The notes under the pieces were generated by a model, which had not been told where the DNA came from, did no database searches, and was given only the letters and a program-made list of their open reading frames with translations. Shown in pieces: positions 13,219 to 21,926 of a stretch of DNA of 64,000 nucleotides. The position numbers and the translations under genes are program-made. Origin of the DNA: a virus (taxonomy: Duplodnaviria; Caudoviricetes); IMG/VR virus record IMGVR_UViG_2522572155_000001, positions 64,001 to 128,000 of that record. One strand, 5' to 3'. Every line of letters begins with the position of its first letter. The first letter of the stretch is position 1.

Positions 13219-13839
13219 TTAGGAGAGGAAGAGCTTGCGCTCCGCTTCGCGACGGCTTGTGAGCCCGGGTAGCACACGGCTGCCTGCCATGTCCCAATCG
13301 AGCAGGTGGTTCGCCGCGCCCTTCCAGTCGTGCGAGCGCAGCGCGCGGCCGACGCCGGTATCCCGGTCGATGGCTCCGGGTCCGCAGTTGTAGACGAAGC
13401 TCACCAGGGCGTCGAACTGATGCTGGCTCAGCGGGAGGTGAAGGGCGGCGACCGGCGGGGCGTACTTGTGGTTGAGGTCTGTCTTGAGGAGAGCCGTCGC
13501 CTGCTTCTCGGTGATGTTCTTCGAGTTTGGGCCGACGCCGGACGTGTGACCGTAGCCGATGGTCCACACGCCCACGGCGTCGCGGTAGGGGTGATCTACG
13601 AAGCCCTCGAAGCGCTTGATGAGGGCGACGCCCGAGTCAGAGACCTTGGTGATGCGCTTGGCGGCAAGCTGCTTCTTGCGACGCTGCACCAACTCATGGG
13701 CGTTCTTGTACATCCCGTACCAGTAGGCCCGGCGCGGGGACTTGGAGTTCTTCTTGACATAGTCTCGCCAGTTCTTGTGGAAGCGAGACTCACGCTCTTC
13801 CCAGAGGGCGAGAGAGTGCTGTAGCTCGGTAACGGTCAT
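13219..13839 (-). CDS. Endolysin, GH24 phage lysozyme
   Basis: IKRFEG...YRDAVGVWTIGYGHT...QFDALVSFVYNCG...GLTSRREAE. Confidence 0.93.
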   Translation of the reverse strand: MTVTELQHSLALWEERESRFHKNWRDYVKKNSKSPRRAYWYGMYKNAHELVQRRKKQLAAKRITKVSDSGVALIKRFEGFVDHPYRDAVGVWTIGYGHTSGVGPNSKNITEKQATALLKTDLNHKYAPPVAALHLPLSQHQFDALVSFVYNCGPGAIDRDTGVGRALRSHDWKGAANHLLDWDMAGSRVLPGLTSRREAERKLFLS

Positions 13840-13874
13840 GTCTATCCGTTACGACTTAGGTCGCGCCCGAAAAG

Positions 13875-13947
13875 TGGCTCTAGCAGGAGTCGAACCTGCG
13901 GCCTCTCCCTTATGAGGGGATCGCTCTGGCCTCTGAGCTATAGAGCC
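13875..13947 (-). tRNA. tRNA-CAT (elongator Met or Ile2)
   Basis: Cloverleaf GGCTCTA...TAGAGCC-A; loop CT-CAT-AA. Confidence 0.9.
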
Positions 13948-13953
13948 GGTGAG

Positions 13954-14025
13954 AGCCGCGTGCGGGACTCGAACCCGCGATGCCTGCTTGGAAGGCAGGA
14001 GTGTTGGCCACTACACCAACGCGGC
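13954..14025 (-). tRNA. tRNA-Gly(TCC)
   Basis: Cloverleaf; CCTGC-CTTCCAA-GCAGG. Confidence 0.92.
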
Positions 14026-14136
14026 GTGCAGAGAAACGGTGCTCTGATGCACCAGTTTCGCCTCGCGAGATTCTTACCTCCCGCGCCCTTCGGAAGAGGT
14101 GAAGGTCACCATCCATCTACCCGAAAGGGAAACATC

Positions 14137-14379
14137 ATGTCTCAGGTTGTCAAGCTCGACAGTCGCACGTTCGTAGCTGTCCCACAGCTAGCAATCGGCG
14201 CCCATACCATCGACGGATACGTGTTCGGCGGGATGCCGTACTACAACCCGGCGCCGGACTCCATTAGCGCCGTCACGATTTGGTGGAAGCTACTCGCGGA
14301 CCCGAGCTACGCGTCGTTGCCGCCGGTCACGTCGATCAGCGTGGAGACCACGGTCTCCGGTACCGTCAACCCGGTCTAG
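14137..14379 (+). CDS. Hypothetical protein, antisense to the tRNA array
   Basis: 80 aa from ATG 14137 with SD-like GAAAGGGA. Confidence 0.6.
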   Translation: MSQVVKLDSRTFVAVPQLAIGAHTIDGYVFGGMPYYNPAPDSISAVTIWWKLLADPSYASLPPVTSISVETTVSGTVNPV

Positions 14380-14579
14380 GAGAAGATCCGAGCGATCTGC
14401 TCGTGCGTCGCTCCCTGGGCGAGATAGCGACGCACGTCGTGGTGACTGAGGGCGAAGCCGTCCAAGCCCTTTGCATCCACGAGGCTCATCACCTGGTCGT
14501 CAACGAAGCCGAGCGAGCGAAACGTCTCGCTACGGTACGCCCTGATCTTGTCACCATTGAGGTCGGTGGTACCTGCCAT
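14376..14579 (-). CDS. Hypothetical protein
   Basis: 67 aa; SD GGGAG. Confidence 0.6.
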   Translation of the reverse strand: MAGTTDLNGDKIRAYRSETFRSLGFVDDQVMSLVDAKGLDGFALSHHDVRRYLAQGATHEQIARIFS

Positions 14580-14665
14580 TCTAAGCTCCCTATCAGAATC
14601 GAACTGATTTCCCGGGGTTACAAGGCCCGTGCATCTCCATCAATGCTTAGGGAGCGGGACGAGCC

Positions 14666-15199
14666 CTACTTCCTCGGGCTCTTCTTGTGTCGATGCAAGC
14701 GAGAAGCATGCGCGTTGAGTCGCCTGCGGGCGAGCTTCGCCGGGCTTGCTGCGAAGTTCACGTGGTGAGCCTCGGAGGCCGTGTGATACGGCTGGTGCAC
14801 CTTGTAGCCGTAGCGATGGAGCACGCGGAGTAGGTCATCCCATTCCGTAACGTCGAGACCTAGCTGATAGGGCCGGAGCTTGTGCCCGACGTGGCCGATG
14901 GTGCCATCTCCGAGCAGCAGGTGGGAGCCCTGGGTCGGTGGGTTCGCGGGCAGGAACCCGGGCAGGCGCTTCGTCCATCCGTTGAACAGGTACGCCTGGT
15001 CGTGAAGCTTGGTCTTGTGCCTCTTGTTGAACGACTTGATCGTGGATACGCGACGATCTGCCGAGACAAGGTGTCCCTTCCAGCCGTTGTTACGCGCGTC
15101 CTGGAGTGCCCATGCGAGGCCCCGGTAGACGGGCACATTGTCGAACTTGACGATGTGCCACGCCGGGTAGACCGTGCTCAGAAGCGGTAGGCGGCTCAT
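14666..15199 (-). CDS. Putative M15-type zinc peptidoglycan peptidase
   Basis: ANPPTQGSH...GLD...EAHHV fits the SxH..D..ExxH signature. Confidence 0.65.
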   Translation of the reverse strand: MSRLPLLSTVYPAWHIVKFDNVPVYRGLAWALQDARNNGWKGHLVSADRRVSTIKSFNKRHKTKLHDQAYLFNGWTKRLPGFLPANPPTQGSHLLLGDGTIGHVGHKLRPYQLGLDVTEWDDLLRVLHRYGYKVHQPYHTASEAHHVNFAASPAKLARRRLNAHASRLHRHKKSPRK

Positions 15200-15234
15200 G
15201 CCGCTTACGTGAGAGGCTCAACGATGAAGTAAGG

Positions 15235-15512
15235 TCACGCCCTATAGCCAGGATTCTGTCGTGGTCGATCATCTACCTCTGTATCGCGTATCGATACGCG
15301 ATACAGGCCACACCTTTACGTGGTGGCTGCCCTCAACCTTGCTCACCCCTGGTTGCCCTCGGGTGGCTATTGCGAGGTTGCACCCTGCCTCCCCACTGAG
15401 GTTCGAACGGCCGTAAGCCTCCCTCCGGAGGATCAGTATCTGCGACGAGGTTTGCCCCCGCCAGGGTGTCCTGAACTTCCTCTGGCCGAGGCCAGCGATC
15501 GACTAGGCGTGA
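15235..15512 (-). ncRNA. rnpB: RNase P RNA (compact, phage-encoded)
   Basis: CR-I GAGGAAGTTCAGGAC, CR-IV AGATGATCGAC, CR-V ACAGAATCCTGGCTA; P1, P2 (GTCGATC/GATCGAC), P3, 8-bp P4 with bulged U and P5 (CACC/GGTG-CAA) all pair. Confidence 0.88.
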
Positions 15513-15513
15513 G

Positions 15514-15586
15514 AGCCCACGCGGGGATTCGAGCCCCGGACCTCTCCCTTACGAGGGGAGCGCTCTACCTGCTGAGCTACGTGGGC
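15514..15586 (-). tRNA. tRNA-Thr(CGT)
   Basis: Cloverleaf; CTCCC-CTCGTAA-GGGAG; T-loop begins CTC instead of TTC. Confidence 0.88.
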
Positions 15587-15591
15587 GTGCA

Positions 15592-15664
15592 AGCCACCAC
15601 AGGGAGTCGAACCCTGGACCCCTGCCTTACCATGGCAGTGCTCTGTCCTCTGAGCTATGGCGGC
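15592..15664 (-). tRNA. tRNA-Thr(GGT)
   Basis: Cloverleaf; CTGCC-ATGGTAA-GGCAG. Confidence 0.9.
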
Positions 15665-15667
15665 GTA

Positions 15668-15739
15668 AGGGGTATGTGGGAATCGAACCCACCTTTGCGA
15701 CATGGCAAGCCACCGTAATAGCCGATATACGAATACCCC
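15668..15739 (-). tRNA. tRNA-Gly(GCC)
   Basis: Cloverleaf; GTGGC-TTGCCAT-GTCGC. Confidence 0.8.
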
Positions 15740-15753
15740 TTGTCTACTGCTAG

Positions 15754-15822
15754 CGCCCCAACGAGGAATCGAACCTCGCATCTCGGATTCGAAGTCCAAG
15801 CGCCAGACACACTGGCAAGGGC
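15754..15822 (-). tRNA. tRNA-Arg(TCG), aberrant D-arm
   Basis: Good T-arm and anticodon arm TTGGA-CTTCGAA-TCCGA; weak acceptor stem, non-canonical D-arm. Confidence 0.65.
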
Positions 15823-15827
15823 GGAAG

Positions 15828-15900
15828 TGCCCCCTACTGGATTCGAACCAGTGACCTCGGCCGTCGCAGGGCCGCGCTCTATCCACTGAGCTAAGAGGGC
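15828..15900 (-). tRNA. tRNA-Arg(GCG)
   Basis: Cloverleaf; CGGCC-CTGCGAC-GGCCG. Confidence 0.9.
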
Positions 15901-15937
15901 AGAGGGTGGGGTCACACACCGCTAGGACCCCACCCTG

Positions 15938-16534
15938 CTACTGATCGAACCGGCCTTCGAGCCAGTCCTTTACGAGGCGAGCCTCGTATACCTGGTCATC
16001 GCCTTCCGCGAGCAATTCGATGATCTTCGGGTGCTCGCGACGAAGCTGTTCCAGGAGGCGACGGGCGTTCGCCCGTTCCTCCTGCGTGAGGTACCCCACG
16101 ATCGAGACGGTGTTATCTCTGTCGTGGAGGTCACGGTGGCAGTCGATGCACACAGGGATTGTGCACCGTGACCGGGCGGCGACCTGTACGTAGTTGGATA
16201 GCTCCCGCATCATCCAACGGTTGACGTAGTGGTGCCTCGTGGAGTCCCCAGGACGGCCGCAGCAGCGACATTCAGGCTGAACCTGTCTCAGCGCTCTGTA
16301 GGCGTTCCTGCGCTCTACGATCTCGGCCGGGGGAGTACCCTGGTCTAGGGCATCACGCAGAGCCTCCACGATTTGCCCTTGCGTCGGGTGCGTATCGAGC
16401 AAGTCGTCAAGCTCGATCCCCGTCACCGTGGTGAGGAGTTCAAGCTGCTCGTGCGTTGCCTTGCGGCCATTGGCCGAAGCGTCGTACCACCAGGTGTCCC
16501 CGGTGGGGAGAGTGATGGGACGGGCGCGTGACAT
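15938..16534 (-). CDS. HNH-family endonuclease-like protein
   Basis: CRCC...TRHH...IPVCIDCHRDLH zinc/HNH pattern. Confidence 0.7.
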   Translation of the reverse strand: MSRARPITLPTGDTWWYDASANGRKATHEQLELLTTVTGIELDDLLDTHPTQGQIVEALRDALDQGTPPAEIVERRNAYRALRQVQPECRCCGRPGDSTRHHYVNRWMMRELSNYVQVAARSRCTIPVCIDCHRDLHDRDNTVSIVGYLTQEERANARRLLEQLRREHPKIIELLAEGDDQVYEARLVKDWLEGRFDQ

Positions 16535-16551
16535 TGTTCCTCACTGGTTAG

Positions 16552-16624
16552 TGCCGCGTACGGGAATCGAACCCGTGTTACCTACGTGAGAGGCAGGCGT
16601 CCTGGTCCACTAGACGAACGCGGC
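16552..16624 (-). tRNA. tRNA-Glu(CTC)
   Basis: Cloverleaf; CCTGC-CTCTCAC-GTAGG. Confidence 0.9.
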
Positions 16625-16632
16625 AGGTGGAG

Positions 16633-16707
16633 GGCGACCAGCGGGATTCGAACCCGTCGCTGCTGGAGTCACAGTCCAGAGTGCTAACCGCTGACACTAT
16701 GGCCGCC
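16633..16707 (-). tRNA. tRNA-His(GTG)
   Basis: Cloverleaf with G-1:C73; CTGGA-CTGTGAC-TCCAG. Confidence 0.9.
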
Positions 16708-16713
16708 ATGAAG

Positions 16714-16784
16714 CTGGGGAGCAAGGATTTGAACCTCAACTAACGGGGCCAAAACCCGTCGTGCTGCCGTTACACCACTCCCCA
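16714..16784 (-). tRNA. tRNA-Gln(TTG)
   Basis: Cloverleaf; ACGGG-TTTTGGC-CCCGT. Confidence 0.9.
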
Positions 16785-16798
16785 GTGGTTACTGCTGA

Positions 16799-16872
16799 TA
16801 GCGGGAGGAGGATTTGAACCTCCGACCTCCAGGTTATGAGCCTAGCGAGCTACCTGACTGCTCCATCCCGCA
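16799..16872 (-). tRNA. tRNA-fMet(CAT)
   Basis: Initiator-type body TGCGGGATGGAGCAG...CCCGCTA with 1:72 mismatch. Confidence 0.88.
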
Positions 16873-16887
16873 TGGGTGAACTGCAAG

Positions 16888-16962
16888 TACCCTCGCTCGG
16901 ATTCGAACCGAGACATGAACGGTGTTTGAAACCGCTACCTCTGCCAATTGGGCTACGAGGGC
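16888..16962 (-). tRNA. tRNA-Leu(CAA), short variable region
   Basis: Cloverleaf; GCGGT-TTCAAAC-ACCGT; 75 nt. Confidence 0.82.
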
Positions 16963-16963
16963 A

Positions 16964-17035
16964 TAGGGCGACGGAGAATCGAACTCCGGCTACGGGGGTG
17001 AAAACCCAGCGGTCTGACCACTAACCTACCGCCCC
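16964..17035 (-). tRNA. tRNA-Glu(TTC)
   Basis: Cloverleaf; loop TT-TTC-AC. Confidence 0.82.
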
Positions 17036-17047
17036 AGGTACTTCGAG

Positions 17048-17122
17048 TGCACCCACGAGGATTTGAACCTCGGACCTCCGCCTTATCAGAGCGGCGCTCT
17101 AACCAAACTGAGCTATGAGTGC
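17048..17122 (-). tRNA. tRNA-Ile(GAT)
   Basis: Cloverleaf; CCGCT-CTGATAA-GGCGG. Confidence 0.92.
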
Positions 17123-17126
17123 AGAG

Positions 17127-17198
17127 TGGAACGCCCCGGAATCGAACCGGGTACACCGCGAGTTTCAGCCGCGTGCTCTACCGATGAGCTAGCGCTCC
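17127..17198 (-). tRNA. tRNA-Phe(GAA)
   Basis: Cloverleaf; CGCGG-CTGAAAC-TCGCG. Confidence 0.9.
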
Positions 17199-17201
17199 AG
17201 G

Positions 17202-17294
17202 TCAGGCCACGAGGCAAAGGGGGAGCCTCGTCTGAGCGGCGTCATGGGACATCCCGGACCGCCGCTAGCGTCTCGCGATCCCCTCGTGACCTGA
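17202..17294 (-). ncRNA. Unassigned structured RNA A
   Basis: Termini pair (TCAGGTCACGAGG/CCTCGTGGCCTGA); inner stem AGCGGCG/CGCCGCT; fills the tRNA spacer. Confidence 0.5.
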
Positions 17295-17296
17295 AG

Positions 17297-17369
17297 TGGA
17301 GCCTAAGGGGTTCGAACCCTTCACCTCCTGCTTGCAAGGCAGGCGCTCTCCCAACTGAGCTAAGGCCCC
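17297..17369 (-). tRNA. tRNA-Ala(TGC)
   Basis: Cloverleaf with G3:U70. Confidence 0.94.
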
Positions 17370-17530
17370 ATGTCGTCGCCAAACGATTCCCACTTGGCGA
17401 TTGCACCATCTTCGAGATAGACGCGCCACCAGCGCATCCTCACGATCCTTCCGTGCGTATCCCATTCGACCCACACGTGGAACTGAATTCGGTCGTACGT
17501 GGGATGGTCGATGACCACCATCTGCTCCAT
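17360..17530 (-). CDS. Small hypothetical protein (56 aa) inside the tRNA array
   Basis: MEQMVVIDHPTYDRIQFHVWVEWDTHGRIVRMRWWRVYLEDGAIAKWESFGDDMGP; fills the spacer; stop lies within tRNA-Ala. Confidence 0.4.
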   Translation of the reverse strand: MEQMVVIDHPTYDRIQFHVWVEWDTHGRIVRMRWWRVYLEDGAIAKWESFGDDMGP

Positions 17531-17547
17531 GCACAAACGTAGTCGGA

Positions 17548-17634
17548 CGGAGAGAGGGAGATTCGAACTCCCGAGACACTTTCGTGTCTACCGTCTTTCC
17601 AGGACGGGCCGTTCAGCCACTCCGGCACCTCTCC
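17548..17634 (-). tRNA. tRNA-Ser(GGA)
   Basis: Cloverleaf with long variable arm. Confidence 0.93.
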
Positions 17635-17637
17635 AAG

Positions 17638-17721
17638 CGGAAGCAGAGGGAATCGAACCCCCGACGCTGTCACACGCAGCCGGGTTCAAACCGGTGTCCT
17701 CGTCCATGCCGGACTACTTCC
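17638..17721 (-). tRNA. tRNA-Ser(TGA)
   Basis: Long variable arm, atypical D-arm; loop TT-TGA-AC. Confidence 0.8.
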
Positions 17722-17724
17722 GTA

Positions 17725-17796
17725 AGGCGGGGAGGGGAATCGAACCCCTGTAACGCGCTTTGCAGGCGCGCACATAAGCCACTCTGTCACCCCGCC
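17725..17796 (-). tRNA. tRNA-Cys(GCA)
   Basis: Cloverleaf, U73. Confidence 0.92.
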
Positions 17797-17852
17797 GGGT
17801 GTGGACAAGCAGCAGTTTAGCAGTAGCGAATGCCCTGCACGCTACAGATAAG

Positions 17853-17924
17853 CTGGCCCGGGAGGATTCGAACCCCCGACATCCCGAGTAACAGTCGGGC
17901 GTTCTGCCACTGAACTACGGGCCA
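17853..17924 (-). tRNA. tRNA-Asn(GTT)
   Basis: Cloverleaf; CCCGA-CTGTTAC-TCGGG. Confidence 0.92.
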
Positions 17925-17943
17925 GTAGTTAGGTGCTGGTAGG

Positions 17944-18017
17944 TGGACCGTCCGGGATTCGAACCCGGATAGCAAGGGTAAGAGCCAAGTATGTTATCCA
18001 GTTGACATCAACGGTCC
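17944..18017 (-). tRNA. tRNA-Lys(CTT)
   Basis: Cloverleaf; anticodon stem CTTGG/CCTTG has two U-U mismatches. Confidence 0.78.
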
Positions 18018-18021
18018 GATA

Positions 18022-18109
18022 CGGAAGGAGAGGGAGTCGAACCCTCGGTACCCGGTTAGGGCACACTCGCTTAGCAGGCGAGCCTATTCGGCCTCTCTAG
18101 CATCCTTCC
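18022..18109 (-). tRNA. tRNA-Ser(GCT)
   Basis: Cloverleaf with long variable arm. Confidence 0.92.
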
Positions 18110-18111
18110 AG

Positions 18112-18183
18112 TGCCCCCGAGAGGACTCGAACCTCCAGCCTAACCCTTAGGAGGGGTTCGCTCTTCCGTTGAGCTACAGGGGC
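18112..18183 (-). tRNA. tRNA-Arg(CCT)
   Basis: Cloverleaf; AACCC-CTCCTAA-GGGTT. Confidence 0.9.
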
Positions 18184-18191
18184 GAAGATTG

Positions 18192-18322
18192 CCCACCAAG
18201 GCTTGTCCGCTTGCCTGTCCTCCGTGCGGAGGAGATCGGTCCTGACCGCAGACATGTATCCGATCTTTCAGTCTGCGGGTAGGCGGTTTCGCCTGGCTCG
18301 TAACCGATCCAGGTCGGGTGGG
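18192..18322 (-). ncRNA. Unassigned multibranch structured RNA B
   Basis: Nested helices CCCACC/GGTGGG, CCTG/CAGG, GATCGGT/ACCGATC, AGGCG/CGCCT, CCGCAGAC/GTCTGCGG, TCCTCC/GGAGGA. Confidence 0.55.
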
Positions 18323-18328
18323 ACTTAG

Positions 18329-18709
18329 TGGAGGCGCCGGGAGTCGAACCCGGGTGTTCCGTGCGCGTATCTCGCCAGTCTTTCAGCAGCTTAGGCCGTA
18401 GGTGGCCATCCACAATCTAAGGACACAGGCTAGCTGTGTCTCCACCACCTGCTCGATACGGTCGAGCAGGAAACCGGCCCTCCGTTTAGGAGGGCGTCAC
18501 CCGGAGTTCTGGTCCTAGGCCCCGGGAGCCCGCGCCGTAGGTTACGCTACGGCTAGAAGTGCTTCCAGTTCGTCCTCGACGGTCATAGTGACCTCGGACG
18601 GCATGGAAGCGATGATGTTCTCGCCAGTTATGGCTTGTGGCAGGTAGGTGTGCCGACCGCTGCACTGCTCGGGACTGCATCTCACGGAGTCGAAGCCATG
18701 TTCGCCCCC
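18329..18709 (-). ncRNA. ssrA: tmRNA
   Basis: 5' GGGGGCGAA..GG..TTCGAC, 3' T-arm GGTTCGACTCC and CGCCTCCA with G3:U70; ATAACT-G resume context; tag ORF 18625-18542 GENIIASMPSEVTMTVEDELEALLAVA*. Confidence 0.93.
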
Positions 18710-18713
18710 AGGA

Positions 18714-18778
18714 GGTTCGCCACTCCGACCACCCTTCGCGGGTGGACCCGGAGCGCTCGAAGTCTCCGGCTGCGAACC
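18714..18778 (-). ncRNA. Unassigned structured RNA C
   Basis: Closing stem GGTTCGC/GCGAACC; inner CGCTCCG/CGGAGTG and CCACCC/GGGTGG. Confidence 0.4.
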
Positions 18779-18779
18779 A

Positions 18780-18852
18780 TGTACCCCACAGGGCTCGAAC
18801 CTGTGACCTCGTGCCTGTCAAGCACGTGCTCTCCCAACTGAGCTAGGGGTAC
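18780..18852 (-). tRNA. tRNA-Val(GAC)
   Basis: Cloverleaf; CGTGC-TTGACAG-GCACG. Confidence 0.92.
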
Positions 18853-18855
18853 GGA

Positions 18856-18928
18856 TGCGCGGTGACGGACTCGAACCGCCGACCTACCGGGTGTAAACCG
18901 GTCGCTCTCCCAACTGAGCTAACCGCGC
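18856..18928 (-). tRNA. tRNA-Val(TAC)
   Basis: Cloverleaf; ACCGG-TTTACAC-CCGGT. Confidence 0.93.
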
Positions 18929-18937
18929 GAGGTATAG

Positions 18938-19009
18938 CAGGGGATACAGGACTCGAACCCGTAGCCTCGGTTTTGGAGACCGAGATGTTCGCCTTTACAC
19001 CAATCCCCT
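18938..19009 (-). tRNA. tRNA-Trp(CCA)
   Basis: Cloverleaf; CTCGG(T)-CTCCAAA-(A)CCGAG. Confidence 0.92.
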
Positions 19010-19014
19010 GGGAG

Positions 19015-19088
19015 CGGTAGTGACGGGGCTCGAACCCGCGACCTCTGCCGTGACAGGGCAGCGCTCTAACCAACTGAGCTACACCACC
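19015..19088 (-). tRNA. tRNA-Asp(GTC)
   Basis: Cloverleaf; CTGCC-CTGTCAC-GGCAG. Confidence 0.94.
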
Positions 19089-19099
19089 AGGTACTTCTA

Positions 19100-19174
19100 T
19101 CAGGATGAGAGGATTCGAACCTCCGACTTCTCGCTCCCGAAGCGAGCGCTCTGGCCAGACTGAGCTACACCCTG
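19100..19174 (-). tRNA. tRNA-Pro(CGG)
   Basis: Cloverleaf; CTCGC-TTCGGGA-GCGAG. Confidence 0.93.
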
Positions 19175-19186
19175 TTACCGCGTAAG

Positions 19187-19268
19187 TACACCCGGAGAGA
19201 TTCGAACTCTCAATCCCGAAGGCACTGGTTCCTAAGACCAGCGTGTATGCCAGTTCCACCACGGGTGC
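19187..19268 (-). tRNA. tRNA-Leu(TAG)
   Basis: Cloverleaf with variable arm. Confidence 0.92.
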
Positions 19269-19271
19269 ATA

Positions 19272-19337
19272 AGCGACGAGGCCGAGGGAGGGAAGGGACC
19301 TGGAGGTGCAAACCATGAACCAGGGGGCCTCGTCGCT
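19272..19337 (-). ncRNA. Unassigned structured RNA D
   Basis: 12-bp perfect closing stem AGCGACGAGGCC/GGCCTCGTCGCT, inner CCTGG/CCAGG, pyrimidine bulge TCCCTTCCCTCCCTC. Confidence 0.5.
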
Positions 19338-19339
19338 AG

Positions 19340-19420
19340 CGCGCCCTCAAGGAATCGAACCTCGCCAGCAATTGCAACCGGGTTACAGCCGGTCGGGAAC
19401 TCCAGTTCCCCATAGAGCGC
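19340..19420 (-). tRNA. tRNA-Tyr(GTA), atypical D-arm
   Basis: ACCGG-CTGTAAC-CCGGT; variable arm; 6-bp D-stem GGGAAC-TGGA-GTTCCC. Confidence 0.8.
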
Positions 19421-19425
19421 GAATG

Positions 19426-19530
19426 ACGCAGGCTCACTGATTCGGGCGCGACCACGGAGCAACTAGACCCCAGCTAGGCTTGGGGGCCATGCGGTATTTC
19501 ACCGCTGCACTCAGGAGGATTACCCTGCGT
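19426..19530 (-). ncRNA. Unassigned structured RNA E
   Basis: Closing stem ACGCAGG/CCTGCGT; hairpins GCGGT-GAAAT-ACCGC and GGCCCC/GGGGTC. Confidence 0.4.
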
Positions 19531-19566
19531 TGAGACGTTGATATGTACCGGTGTCTCAGACCGGAG

Positions 19567-19638
19567 TGTCCTCCAAGGGACTCGAACCCTTGACGATGCC
19601 CTTAGAAGGGGCGCGCTCTGCCGCTGAGCTAGGAGGAC
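19567..19638 (-). tRNA. tRNA-Arg(TCT)
   Basis: Cloverleaf; loop CT-TCT-AA; first tRNA of the operon. Confidence 0.9.
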
Positions 19639-19690
19639 GACTTGCATGAGAACGTCATCGGCCGGGGCCGGGCGAACTCCTATGTCGAGA

Positions 19691-19721
19691 GAAAGAAAAG
19701 GCCCGCTCGAATGGCGGGCCT
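19691..19721 (-). terminator. Intrinsic terminator/attenuator upstream of the tRNA array
   Basis: AGGCCCGC-CATTCGA-GCGGGCCT then TTTCTTTC. Confidence 0.85.
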
Positions 19722-19752
19722 CCTGTACGCGCGATGTGCGGGTAGCAGGAGG

Positions 19753-19812
19753 CTACGACAGGGTCTGACCCTTCGGATCGCGACGCGAGTTATGTCTAAT
19801 GAAGTAGGCCAT
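19753..19812 (-). CDS. Putative leader peptide MAYFIRHNSRRDPKGQTLS
   Basis: 19 codons between promoter and terminator; stop abuts a hairpin that competes with the terminator; SD weak. Confidence 0.5.
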   Translation of the reverse strand: MAYFIRHNSRRDPKGQTLS

Positions 19813-19914
19813 TGCTTCTCTGTACCCCTTACCCCAGGCGTGTGGGGCGGTTTCCAGTGCCGCCAGCCTAAAGATTGTCTAAAGGCTGGCGGCGTGGAAG
19901 GGCGACGACGGAGA

Positions 19915-19943
19915 ACTATAGCCCGGGGCCTACCGTTCGTCAA
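19915..19943 (-). promoter_or_regulatory. SigA/sigma70-type promoter of the RNA operon
   Basis: TTGACG-N17-TATAGT. Confidence 0.8.
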
Positions 19944-19970
19944 GGAGAAACTATAAGGCGGGTTCGAATC

Positions 19971-21926
19971 CTAGGCGATCTCGCATGCCCCTGCTACGCA
20001 GGCAAGCTCCTTCATTCCCTCCGTGGCGTCCTCCGTCTCGAACGATGTGAGGGCGTCCCAATACAGGCTGTCGGGCATGGCCTCGGCCAGGCGCACGTAC
20101 ATCTCCTGGTCGATGTCCTGGTAGGGCGCCTGCTGGTATGTATGGTCGGAGTGGGGGAGGAACGAGACGCCGGACATGCGGTCGAAGTGCTTGAAGACGA
20201 AGGCGCCGACCTCCATCCACTCGTCGTCGCGTACGTAGACCGTGATCGAGGGCTTGTGCTCGCACCAGTGCTCGGCGTACGTCAGCCATAGCTCTAGCTG
20301 CTCGATGGCGCTCATGTCGTGCCGCGTGATCGCGCCCTCGGGGGCCTGCATGGGGTAGCTGAAGACCAACGTGCTGTCTGGGTGCAGAAGCTCGTCTTCG
20401 ACCGGCACGCCGCTAGCGGCGAGGAACTGGGCCACGGGGTCGTTCTTGCTCGCGCGGTTTGTCCGCACGTAGTACGGCGCGTAGCGCGGATGGATACCCG
20501 AGGACGCGTCTACAAGCTGCGAGACGGTCCCGGAGGGCTTCACACACGTGATCGCCGTGGGGACGTTGATCCCGAGCTTGGATGCCCAGTTGGTGGCCGT
20601 GTCGATGGCCACCTGCTTCAGGCCGTCGAGGATGTCCCGGAGTAGTGCCTTGCCCTTGCGCCCGGCCATGACCAGGTTGTCCATGATGCCGGTGATCGAG
20701 ACGCCCAGGAGACGCTCTTCCTCGCAGTTCTTCTTCCACGTGGGGGAGAGGAAGCGGAAGTCGGTGAAGGTGCTCTGGATGCAGCCCAAGATGGTCGCGA
20801 GGCGTACCTTCTCTGCCAGGGTCTCGAAGGTATCGTCGGCCCGGCACACGACCTCGGACAGATTGCAGAACTGCCGGTCCCTGAGGATGATCTCCGAGCA
20901 CGGGTTGGTGCCGAAGTCGAAGGAGGCGTCACGACGCCCGGACCGAGCAGCGATCTTCTGCATCCCGGCGCGGTTGACGATCCCGCGTTCCCCTGACTTG
21001 GACTTGATGAGGCTGGTCCACTCCTCCATGAAGAGTTCAGCCGTGGGGCGCTCGTCGTAGACGGCCGAGTTGTTGGCGAGCGCGTACTCGGGGTGGCTAT
21101 CCCACCACTGCCCGGCCTTCGCGTTGCGCATGCGGTCGTCGGAGAGGTTCGAGAGGGAGATCAGGGCCGAGCGACGGACACCGCCCACCACCACGATGTC
21201 TCCCACCTTGCACATGACGCCGTGGCACTCGATAGAGGTGAGCTTGCGGCCCTGCGCTGCCCTGAACGTCTCGATGATGTACCGGAACAGATCCTCCAGC
21301 GGAGCCGGACCAGACGCACGGCCGCCGAAGGTCTTCAGCCGAGCACCGGCAGGGCGTACCTTCGAGGTATCGACGTTCGGGATGTTGCCCGCGTAGAGAG
21401 CCGCCAGCAGACGATTCAGGGCGGACGCCCAGCCCTGCTTCGAGTCCGCGACCACGATCACGTCATCACAAGGGAAGAGGTTCGGCACCTCAGGGAGCTT
21501 GCTGACGTACTGACGCTCCACCGAGAACCCGACGCCGGTACCGCACATCAGGATGTACATGGCCTCAGCGAACGCCTGAACGCGCGAGACGGTGAGGTAG
21601 GCGCAGTTGTAACCCGCAACGTTATCCCGCTCCAGAGCAGGACCGGCGGTCATGAGTGCCCTCATGGAACCAAGGGAGCGGAGGTCGAGCATTCCATCCG
21701 CGAGCGCGGAGCGCTCATCAGGGGTTAGAGCGTACCCCATCTTCAGCGCCTGCTTCTCCATCGCGGAGATGTAGCGCTCGATGCTCTCGTGCCAGAACTC
21801 CCGGCGACCCTCGCGTTCGACCCACCGCGAGTACTTCGTCATGTGGATCTGCTGCTGGTACAGGGTTGGGAGGGTAACGATGTCGTTCTCTTCAGTCATA
21901 AGCGTGCTCGTTACATAGTCGGCCAC
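19971..21926 (-). CDS. nrdJ: Class II (B12-dependent) ribonucleotide reductase
   Basis: GYNCAY, GTNPCSEIIL, FCNLSEV, TCVKPSGT, C-terminal CVAGAC; no small-subunit gene nearby. Confidence 0.93.
   Translation of the reverse strand: MADYVTSTLMTEENDIVTLPTLYQQQIHMTKYSRWVEREGRREFWHESIERYISAMEKQALKMGYALTPDERSALADGMLDLRSLGSMRALMTAGPALERDNVAGYNCAYLTVSRVQAFAEAMYILMCGTGVGFSVERQYVSKLPEVPNLFPCDDVIVVADSKQGWASALNRLLAALYAGNIPNVDTSKVRPAGARLKTFGGRASGPAPLEDLFRYIIETFRAAQGRKLTSIECHGVMCKVGDIVVVGGVRRSALISLSNLSDDRMRNAKAGQWWDSHPEYALANNSAVYDERPTAELFMEEWTSLIKSKSGERGIVNRAGMQKIAARSGRRDASFDFGTNPCSEIILRDRQFCNLSEVVCRADDTFETLAEKVRLATILGCIQSTFTDFRFLSPTWKKNCEEERLLGVSITGIMDNLVMAGRKGKALLRDILDGLKQVAIDTATNWASKLGINVPTAITCVKPSGTVSQLVDASSGIHPRYAPYYVRTNRASKNDPVAQFLAASGVPVEDELLHPDSTLVFSYPMQAPEGAITRHDMSAIEQLELWLTYAEHWCEHKPSITVYVRDDEWMEVGAFVFKHFDRMSGVSFLPHSDHTYQQAPYQDIDQEMYVRLAEAMPDSLYWDALTSFETEDATEGMKELACVAGACEIA

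Follow-up and report, generated by a model that had tools for sequence, protein, structure and literature searches.

A candidate leader-peptide attenuator with an amino-acid-diverse reading frame upstream of the tRNA and tmRNA array of a large prophage

We have found that the 332-nt spacer separating nrdJ, which encodes a class II ribonucleotide reductase, from a large array of tRNA genes on the minus strand of a 64,000-nucleotide stretch of DNA (hereafter the window) holds a compact cassette composed of a promoter, a 5'-proximal hairpin, a 19-codon open reading frame (ORF), a second hairpin that begins at the stop codon, and an intrinsic terminator (Table 1). On the basis of comparison with relatives and of predicted folds, we consider it probable (roughly 60%) that the cassette is a ribosome-mediated leader-peptide attenuator that gates read-through into the tRNA/tmRNA array. 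This reading is in keeping with the original prediction, made from the window alone, of an attenuator that senses the tRNA pool, and it draws support from equivalent upstream ORFs in relatives, from the amino-acid diversity of the peptides that these would encode, from folds in which a ribosome footprint is masked, and from a spacer in which no separate promoter was found. What the sequences themselves show is the set of features in the cassette and how far these are conserved, the covariation of the stems, where the stop codon falls, and an amino-acid diversity above expectation. More tentatively, and at slightly less than even odds, a leader containing one of each amino acid might act as a general sensor of the aminoacyl-tRNA pool, such that a shortage of any single tRNA would switch on the full tRNA set together with the tmRNA.

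The window is enclosed by an island of approximately 165 kb (215-380 kb of contig C5) that has a GC content of 62-66%, as against 72.5% in the host, and whose genes include those for a large terminase, a DnaE-type polymerase, a helicase, and baseplate and virion proteins. Because the island carries both structural and replication genes of a phage, we take it to be a large prophage. The TerL encoded there shares 32-34% identity with the TerL of Rhodococcus phage E3 and with that of cluster C mycobacteriophages. The nearest known relatives of the phage infect actinobacteria, and we note that no WhiB-family gene was found in the host genome, which is 96% complete. With its 32 tRNAs and a tmRNA, the island seems to be an unusually large integrated prophage of the myovirus-like kind. 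The tRNA and tmRNA genes that had been described behind the cassette are present, all of them on the minus strand, and the 32 tRNA genes cover all 20 amino acids. A scan of some 185 kb around the prophage island revealed no second cassette of the same kind (a diverse short ORF followed by a terminator).

Every feature that the original prediction had described was recovered where it had been placed, on the minus strand. The promoter matches the consensus at 10 of 12 positions, gives a predicted transcription start at about 19908, and is the sole sigma-70-like site between 13 and 23 kb, a count that is by itself not above chance (1.7 expected). The large 5' hairpin (hairpin 1) has an 11-bp GC-rich stem formed by 19893-19883 and 19869-19859, with an outer extension, and may serve to stabilise the 5' end of the transcript or as a pause or binding site. 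A weak Shine-Dalgarno sequence had been raised as a caveat, and this holds: the candidate, AGAGAAG, can pair partly with the 3' end of the host 16S rRNA (CCUCCUUUCU), and many phage genes in the window are likewise without a strong Shine-Dalgarno sequence. The leader ORF would encode 16 different amino acids, C, E, V and W being absent, with 18 different codons, three different Arg codons among them, just as had been counted. Hairpin 2, the candidate antiterminator, begins with its 5' arm at the G of the TAG stop codon and has a predicted energy of -22.7 kcal/mol when folded alone; the terminator that follows it, ahead of the first tRNA, has a 7-nt loop and a U-tract at 19699-19691. The RNA from 19908 to 19685 (224 nt) folds as a whole with -97.7 kcal/mol, a z-score of -5.6 relative to shuffled sequences.

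Table 1. Positions of the cassette, its surroundings and its counterparts in relatives. Positions are those of the window unless a contig is named.
Feature	Position	Strand	Remarks
Window	G000:C5:287233-351232		Within a 6.64-Mb genome of 72.5% GC
nrdJ	21926-19971	minus	Class II ribonucleotide reductase; upstream gene
Sigma-70-like promoter	19943-19915	minus	-35 TTGACG 19943-19938, 17-nt spacer, -10 TATAGT 19920-19915
Hairpin 1	19898-19853	minus	5'-proximal stem-loop
Hairpin 1 loop repeat	19884-19867	minus	CTTTAGA-(3-4 nt)-CTTTAG(G/A)
Hairpin 1 loop repeat in L177	L177:6990-7010		CTTTAGA-(3-4 nt)-CTTTAG(G/A)
Putative Shine-Dalgarno sequence	19821-19815	minus	AGAGAAG; purine-rich, 2 nt before ATG, weak
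Leader ORF	ATG 19812 to TAG 19755-19753	minus	19 codons and stop, MAYFIRHNSRRDPKGQTLS
Hairpin 2 (candidate antiterminator)	19753-19718	minus	8 bp, bulge, 3 bp, inner 3-bp helix
Intrinsic terminator	19724-19691	minus	Core stem GGCCCGC/GCGGGCC, 19720-19714 / 19706-19700
tRNA/tmRNA array	19638-13874	minus	32 tRNA genes, tmRNA, few embedded ORFs
tRNA-Arg(TCT)	19638-19566	minus	First tRNA of array
tmRNA	18709-18328	minus	Inside array
Match to Rfam RNaseP_bact_a	15229-15514	minus	Possible reduced RNase P RNA
Homologous leader ORF	L177:7051-7107		
Homologous leader ORF	L176:7899-8009		
Homologous leader ORF	L180:7076-7168		
Homologous leader ORF	L181:7168-7263		
Homologous leader ORF	L192:5267-5362		
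Homologous leader ORF	L182:5147-5206		
Homologous leader ORF	L185:6016-6093		
Homologous leader ORF	L193:5096-5170		
Hairpin and CACATA spacer	L180:7236-7270		
Hairpin and CACATA spacer	L181:7330-7374		
Hairpin and CACATA spacer	L182:5270-5310		
Hairpin and CACATA spacer	L192:5425-5469		
Hairpin and CACATA spacer	L193:5236-5276		
Second promoter-like site and hairpin/terminator-like region	L176:7505-7800		TTGACA-N18-TAACCT

NrdJ was used as the marker for finding relatives. A search of 5.8 billion proteins returned NrdJ homologs that are 64-74% identical and encoded on large contigs, and after the merging of duplicates (L178 is identical to L177, L183 and L184 match L182, and L194 matches L193) there were eight distinct contig loci (L176, L177, L180, L181, L182, L185, L192 and L193), which together with the window make up the nine homologs discussed here. 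The order nrdJ, promoter, usually a 5' hairpin, ORF, hairpin 2, terminator and tRNA-Arg(TCT) is shared by these nine, with one or two extra genes after nrdJ in L176 and L185, and tRNA-Arg(TCT) is the first tRNA in all eight relatives too. The promoter, of the form TTGACA/TTGCAC-N16-18-TAnnnT, is found at an equivalent place in eight of the nine; the 5' hairpin occurs at an equivalent place in seven, its stem sequences differing, and none is evident in L180 or L185. An AGAGA/AAGA motif stands 3-12 nt before the ATG in most homologs. The leader ORFs all start with ATG and are 18-36 codons long, and they are followed by an intrinsic terminator (a GC stem and a U-tract) in all homologs save L193, in which the U-tract is interrupted. 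Conserved, diverse upstream ORFs accompanied by covarying hairpins, such as had been expected ahead of related tRNA arrays, are therefore found in eight relatives.

One of these leaders, that of L177/L178, comes from the same sample as the IMG/VR contig G041; the latter has a TerL that is 87% identical and stops inside its array, before the leader, which its partner contig then supplied. Other searches added no cassettes. The DNA of the region had no match among 50,697 phage records, a DNA search of 40 related host genomes gave chance-level matches only, and a DnaB-based scan of metagenomes yielded no further loci. Searches for the NrdJ locus in IMG/VR and GTDB were uninformative because NrdJ is too widespread: all that they yielded was distant phages of low GC content or cellular genes that lacked a tRNA array. 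Mycobacteriophage HyRo (cluster C) has no such cassette at the start of its array, and the first 50 kb of Rhodococcus phage E3 carry no tRNA annotation.

Hairpin 2 has a pyrimidine-rich 5' arm and a purine-rich 3' arm, the latter doubling as the 5' flank and the base of the stem of the terminator. An overlap of 4 nt between the two structures had been proposed for the window; a small overlap is present, but within the core of the terminator it amounts to 3 nt (GGC) and not 4, and it reaches 7 nt if a weak A-U/G-U extension into the U-tract is counted. We note that the purines AGGA (19724-19721) can lengthen the terminator stem onto the U-tract once hairpin 2 is open, and that in the trp leader of Bacillus subtilis an overlap of 4 nt suffices. 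Across the nine homologs the stems overlap by 2-8 nt and the GC cores by 0-4 nt (3 nt in the window, 4 in L176, 2 in each of L177, L180 and L182, and 0 in L181 and L192). The arms of hairpin 2 and of the terminator vary in sequence from one homolog to the next, as tabulated per sequence, with complementarity kept throughout, and the fold of the two together has z-scores of -2.5 to -6.8; MAFFT followed by RNAalifold returned no consensus for this region because the stems are out of register.

The effect of a ribosome was modelled by blocking a footprint of 15 nt, consisting of the stop codon and 12 nt. With the footprint masked, the 3' arm of hairpin 2 is freed and the terminator stem grows by 2-8 bp, pairs onto the U-tract included, in all nine homologs; the probability of the bottom pairs rises from at most 0.2 to approximately 0.5-1.0 in the window and five relatives, and the change is less clear in L181, L182 and L192. 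The two alternative folds in the window are isoenergetic (-28.7 versus -28.9 kcal/mol), and so any antitermination effect should be kinetic, arising from the fact that hairpin 2 is made first. We found no conserved pause or anti-antiterminator hairpin of the 1:2 type across the nine homologs, which suggests that a complete lack of translation should give read-through and not super-attenuation. In folds of the nascent RNA the 5' arm of hairpin 2 is paired upstream in the window (probability unpaired 0.13), and the homologs are inconsistent in this respect (0.26-0.84).

The position of the stop codon is likewise shared: in each of the nine homologs, the distance from the end of the stop (TAG, TGA or TAA) to the base of hairpin 2 is between -2 and +4 nt. 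An ATG ORF of at least 17 codons that ends at hairpin 2 arises in 0.7% of dinucleotide shuffles of the region upstream of that hairpin in the window, and in 0.7-7% across the homologs.

The leader peptides cannot be aligned with one another apart from a loose likeness at their N-termini (M-x-[SY]-[FY]-[ILV]-H), and they are diverse in composition. They contain between 14 and 20 distinct amino acids, two of them all 20 (distinct residues/length: 16/19, 14/18, 20/36, 18/30, 19/31, 20/31, 17/19, 18/25 and 18/24). Shuffling the nucleotides of each ORF yields means of 11-15, and the values for windows drawn from proteins of the phage itself are 10.5-14.6. The p values for the individual leaders range from 0.14 to <0.0002 and are at or below 0.01 for eight of the nine, including seven of the eight relatives, which constitute an out-of-sample test of a diversity that was first seen in the window alone; a nominal Fisher combination of about 1e-14 treats the homologs as independent and thus overstates the significance. 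Among the 44 ATG ORFs in the window that have 18-20 codons, none is as diverse in amino acids as the leader, and among the window's short ORFs of matching length it alone reaches the values seen in the nine leaders. It is diversity of amino acids, both in the window and in the eight relatives, that sets the leader apart from random ORFs; diversity of codons, which had also been proposed as a distinguishing feature, does not (p = 0.34 in the window). Ten residues recur in every one of the nine peptides (D, F, H, I, K, L, N, S, T and Y), even though five of them, H, Y, N, K and F, are scarce in the proteins of the phage at 2-4% each. Taken together, the nine peptides contain exactly nine Y, nine D and nine K. 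The leader is not enriched in codons of any one sensed amino acid, its diversity being maximal instead.

Two more specific codon themes were considered and rejected. The window leader contains, side by side, ATT and AGA, the rarest codons of the host (0.4 and 0.6 per 1000), and a leader made up of rare codons was therefore a candidate; its CAI is not unusual, enrichment for A or T at third positions (AT3) is not significant over the nine homologs (Fisher p = 0.21), and AGA is not conserved. The residues of a possible queuosine-tRNA theme, Y, H, N and D, do occur in all nine peptides, but so do F, I, K, L, S and T.

Comparison of the closest pair of leaders, those of L181 and L192, suggests what might be selected. 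Although 18 of their 96 nt differ, giving 9 nonsynonymous and 2 synonymous codon changes, these two retain 19 and 20 distinct residues; 18 random substitutions would be predicted to leave 16.6, and the probability of at least 20 is 0.005. Positions 2-5 carry four amino acids that both leaders share but arrange differently, and a Tyr lost at position 13 is regained at position 6. Since composition is kept despite these changes, selection would appear to bear on which amino acids are present and not on their positions, that is, it seems to act on the content of the leader and not on its order.

This pattern also weighs against the possibility that the cassette is a stand-alone micro-gene, in which the promoter, ORF and terminator serve the production of a small peptide in its own right and the array is driven from the spacer that follows the terminator. 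Such a gene would account for the cassette having its own promoter and a good terminator, for the fact that in two relatives the ORF, of 30 and 31 codons respectively, was annotated by gene callers, and for the N-terminal likeness of the peptides. Nevertheless, between L181 and L192 it is composition and not peptide sequence that is kept, the peptide varies in length from 18 to 36 residues and lacks any hydrophobic or signal segment, the stop codon is tied to the base of hairpin 2, which a plain gene would not need, and the cassette always adjoins the tRNA array. The spacers after the terminator speak on both sides. In L185 there is an extended -10 element (TGaTATAAT), and in L180, L181, L182, L192 and L193 a small GC hairpin is followed by CACATA(G/C/A)(C/A)A, approximately 12-25 nt before the tRNA; the latter element could be a weak second promoter or a processing signal, and in these six relatives there may be a second, constitutive input into the tRNAs. 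L176, by contrast, has only 11 nt between the U-tract and the tRNA, leaving no room for a second promoter, so that its tRNA should be reachable by read-through only. In the window itself no sigma-70-like site was found between the terminator and the tRNA, the interval 19640-19690 included. Taken together, we regard a stand-alone micro-gene as unlikely.

It is more improbable still that the cassette is a non-coding structured RNA, either a small RNA or a 5' leader that affects the stability or processing of the tRNA precursor, with an ORF that is not translated. The strength of the fold of the whole RNA, the conserved hairpins with their covarying stems, the weak Shine-Dalgarno sequence and the loop motif that hairpin 1 of the window shares with L177 would all fit such an RNA. 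Against it, an ATG frame ends at hairpin 2 in nine divergent sequences, an arrangement that chance provides in 0.7-7% of cases each, and amino-acid diversity is a property of the frame, which would not be selected in a non-coding RNA. Further, a search of Rfam with 13500-20100 returned no match in the leader region at the gathering score. The best of the matches there, to Trp_leader (RF00513; 19794-19693, 21.6 bits as against a gathering score of 41, E = 0.77), is at the level of noise; it mirrors the shape of a hairpin followed by a terminator and does not indicate membership of that family.

Least probable is the view that these are ordinary signals of a gene boundary, with the terminator ending transcription of nrdJ and the promoter and ORF upstream being incidental: it is true that three low-GC relatives (L188, L189 and L191; DnaB 58%) have nrdJ, a terminator and then an extended -10 promoter (TGnTATAAT/TATACT, in the same place in the spacer) before the tRNA, with no leader, that in G042 (TerL 55% identical) the spacer is a plain one of 77 nt, containing a single hairpin and no leader, and that the terminator sequence is evidently a common form, given that its pattern was matched in IMG/VR by 19 unrelated contigs without tRNAs, but the high-GC clade has its promoter ahead of the terminator, which would thus act on a transcript only just begun, the placement of promoter, ORF and hairpin 2 is conserved in nine sequences, and the diversity of the leader is left unaccounted for. 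The absence of the leader from the low-GC relatives and from G042 indicates instead that the cassette is a feature of one high-GC clade. All three of these alternatives leave unexplained both the frame-dependent diversity and the fixed position of the stop codon.

Under the leader-peptide attenuator that we favour, RNA polymerase would start at about 19908 and transcribe the 19-codon ORF, and the read-through that is gated would come both from the cassette's own promoter and from nrdJ. A ribosome that keeps pace and has reached the last codons or the stop would cover the pyrimidine-rich 5' arm of hairpin 2 with its footprint; the purine-rich 3' arm (CAGGAGGC) would then be free, the full terminator would form, possibly extending onto the U-tract, and transcription would end at 19699-19691. 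If the ribosome were to lag, either because it initiated late or because the decoding of any codon within roughly the first two thirds of the ORF was slow, hairpin 2 would form first and hold the base of the terminator stem, termination would be weakened, and polymerase would read through into tRNA-Arg(TCT) and the rest of the array. We infer, in this scheme, that the ORF is translated and that hairpin 2 lowers termination, as well as the direction of the switch and its trigger. A leader selected to have a single codon or so for almost all of the amino acids, as opposed to a run of one, would for that reason report any shortage of aminoacyl-tRNA or a general stress on translation, and the response to that shortage or stress would be the supply of tRNAs and tmRNA. 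Possible causes of a tRNA shortage include starvation, host shut-off and a defence based on anticodon nucleases.

The class of mechanism that we propose is a known one. In attenuation of the trp/his type, a ribosome at the stop codon of the leader blocks the antiterminator, stalling leads to read-through, and the leader repeats one amino acid. The trpL, hisL, thrL and ilvGMEDA leaders are similar to the phage cassette in having a promoter-proximal ORF of about 14-36 codons, a stop codon placed so that the ribosome covers the 5' arm of the antiterminator, and an overlapping intrinsic terminator, and in these classical systems read-through rises when decoding stalls, as would be the case here. 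They differ from it in that they repeat one or a few regulatory amino acids, whereas the phage leader has about one of nearly every amino acid; in that they control biosynthetic enzymes, whereas the phage cassette precedes tRNAs and a tmRNA; and in that they have a 1:2 hairpin and a longer overlap, whereas in the phage cassette no such hairpin was found and the overlap is shorter. By analogy, we would place the multivalent ilv leader as the nearest published relative, and the drug-sensing leaders of resistance genes as the nearest in logic. In the bmrB-bmrCD, vmlR and lmo0919 leaders, which have been the subject of Term-seq studies, a short ORF without any amino-acid theme senses slowed translation and relieves a terminator, and the output of resistance-gene leaders helps the cell to cope with the translation defect. 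These leaders answer ribosomes stalled by drugs and control ABC-F or efflux proteins, whereas the output in the phage would be the decoding machinery itself, and we know of no description of selection for maximal amino-acid diversity among them. T-box riboswitches also act by transcription attenuation, report on tRNA charging and control translation-related genes, but they bind a single uncharged tRNA directly and without translation, whereas the phage cassette is proposed to depend on translation; no T-box match at E<=5 was found in 13500-20100, and we saw neither a specifier loop nor a T-box sequence.

Although the mechanism belongs to classical attenuation, neither its application to tRNA genes nor the pan-amino-acid design was found in the literature searched, and no report of phage tRNA arrays controlled by a leader peptide turned up there. 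The cassette bears on how phages time and dose the expression of their tRNA arrays, and on whether those arrays respond to host defences that deplete tRNAs or to the collapse of host translation. If our reading is correct, attenuation of the trp type would be widened to the sensing of all amino acids instead of one and to the control of tRNA genes instead of enzyme genes, and a leader with all amino acids would be a simple sensor that couples the speed of decoding to the supply of tRNAs and tmRNA. The leader would likewise demonstrate that a peptide can be selected for its composition and not for its sequence, which could be of practical use in recognising regulatory upstream ORFs in genomes, and the design could become a compact synthetic reporter of global translation stress. 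Since the phage resides in a bacterial chromosome as a prophage and the promoter is of the host type, it is possible that the array might also serve the lysogen under stress.

Several further observations concern the cassette and the array. L176 has, upstream of its leader cassette and after an extra gene of 191 codons, a second promoter-like site together with a region that resembles a hairpin or terminator (Table 1). The original prediction had also placed an RNase P RNA in the operon; here the Rfam model RNaseP_bact_a aligned in its entirety directly after tRNA-Thr(CGT), with 40.2 bits as against a gathering score of 100 (E = 2.7e-11 in a search of 411 nt), a match that was not reported in the 6.6-kb Rfam search, and a reduced phage-encoded RNase P RNA at this place is possible.

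The loop of hairpin 1 contains a direct repeat (CTTTAGA-caat-CTTTAGG in the window) that is conserved between the window and its closest relative, L177, even as the stems around it differ and yet stay paired. The UUAGA within it is complementary to anticodon-loop positions 34-38 of tRNA-Arg(UCU), which heads the array, and AUU-AGA-C is likewise read in the leader ORF; the motif shows no enrichment in the rest of the window (5 occurrences as against 4.2 expected), and we regard the apparent complementarity to tRNA-Arg(UCU) as only a curiosity at present. Lastly, the tmRNA of the phage has a long and atypical tag of 27 residues that ends in LLAVA, and the tmRNA of the host, on contig C3, has a different tag, ending in FALAL.
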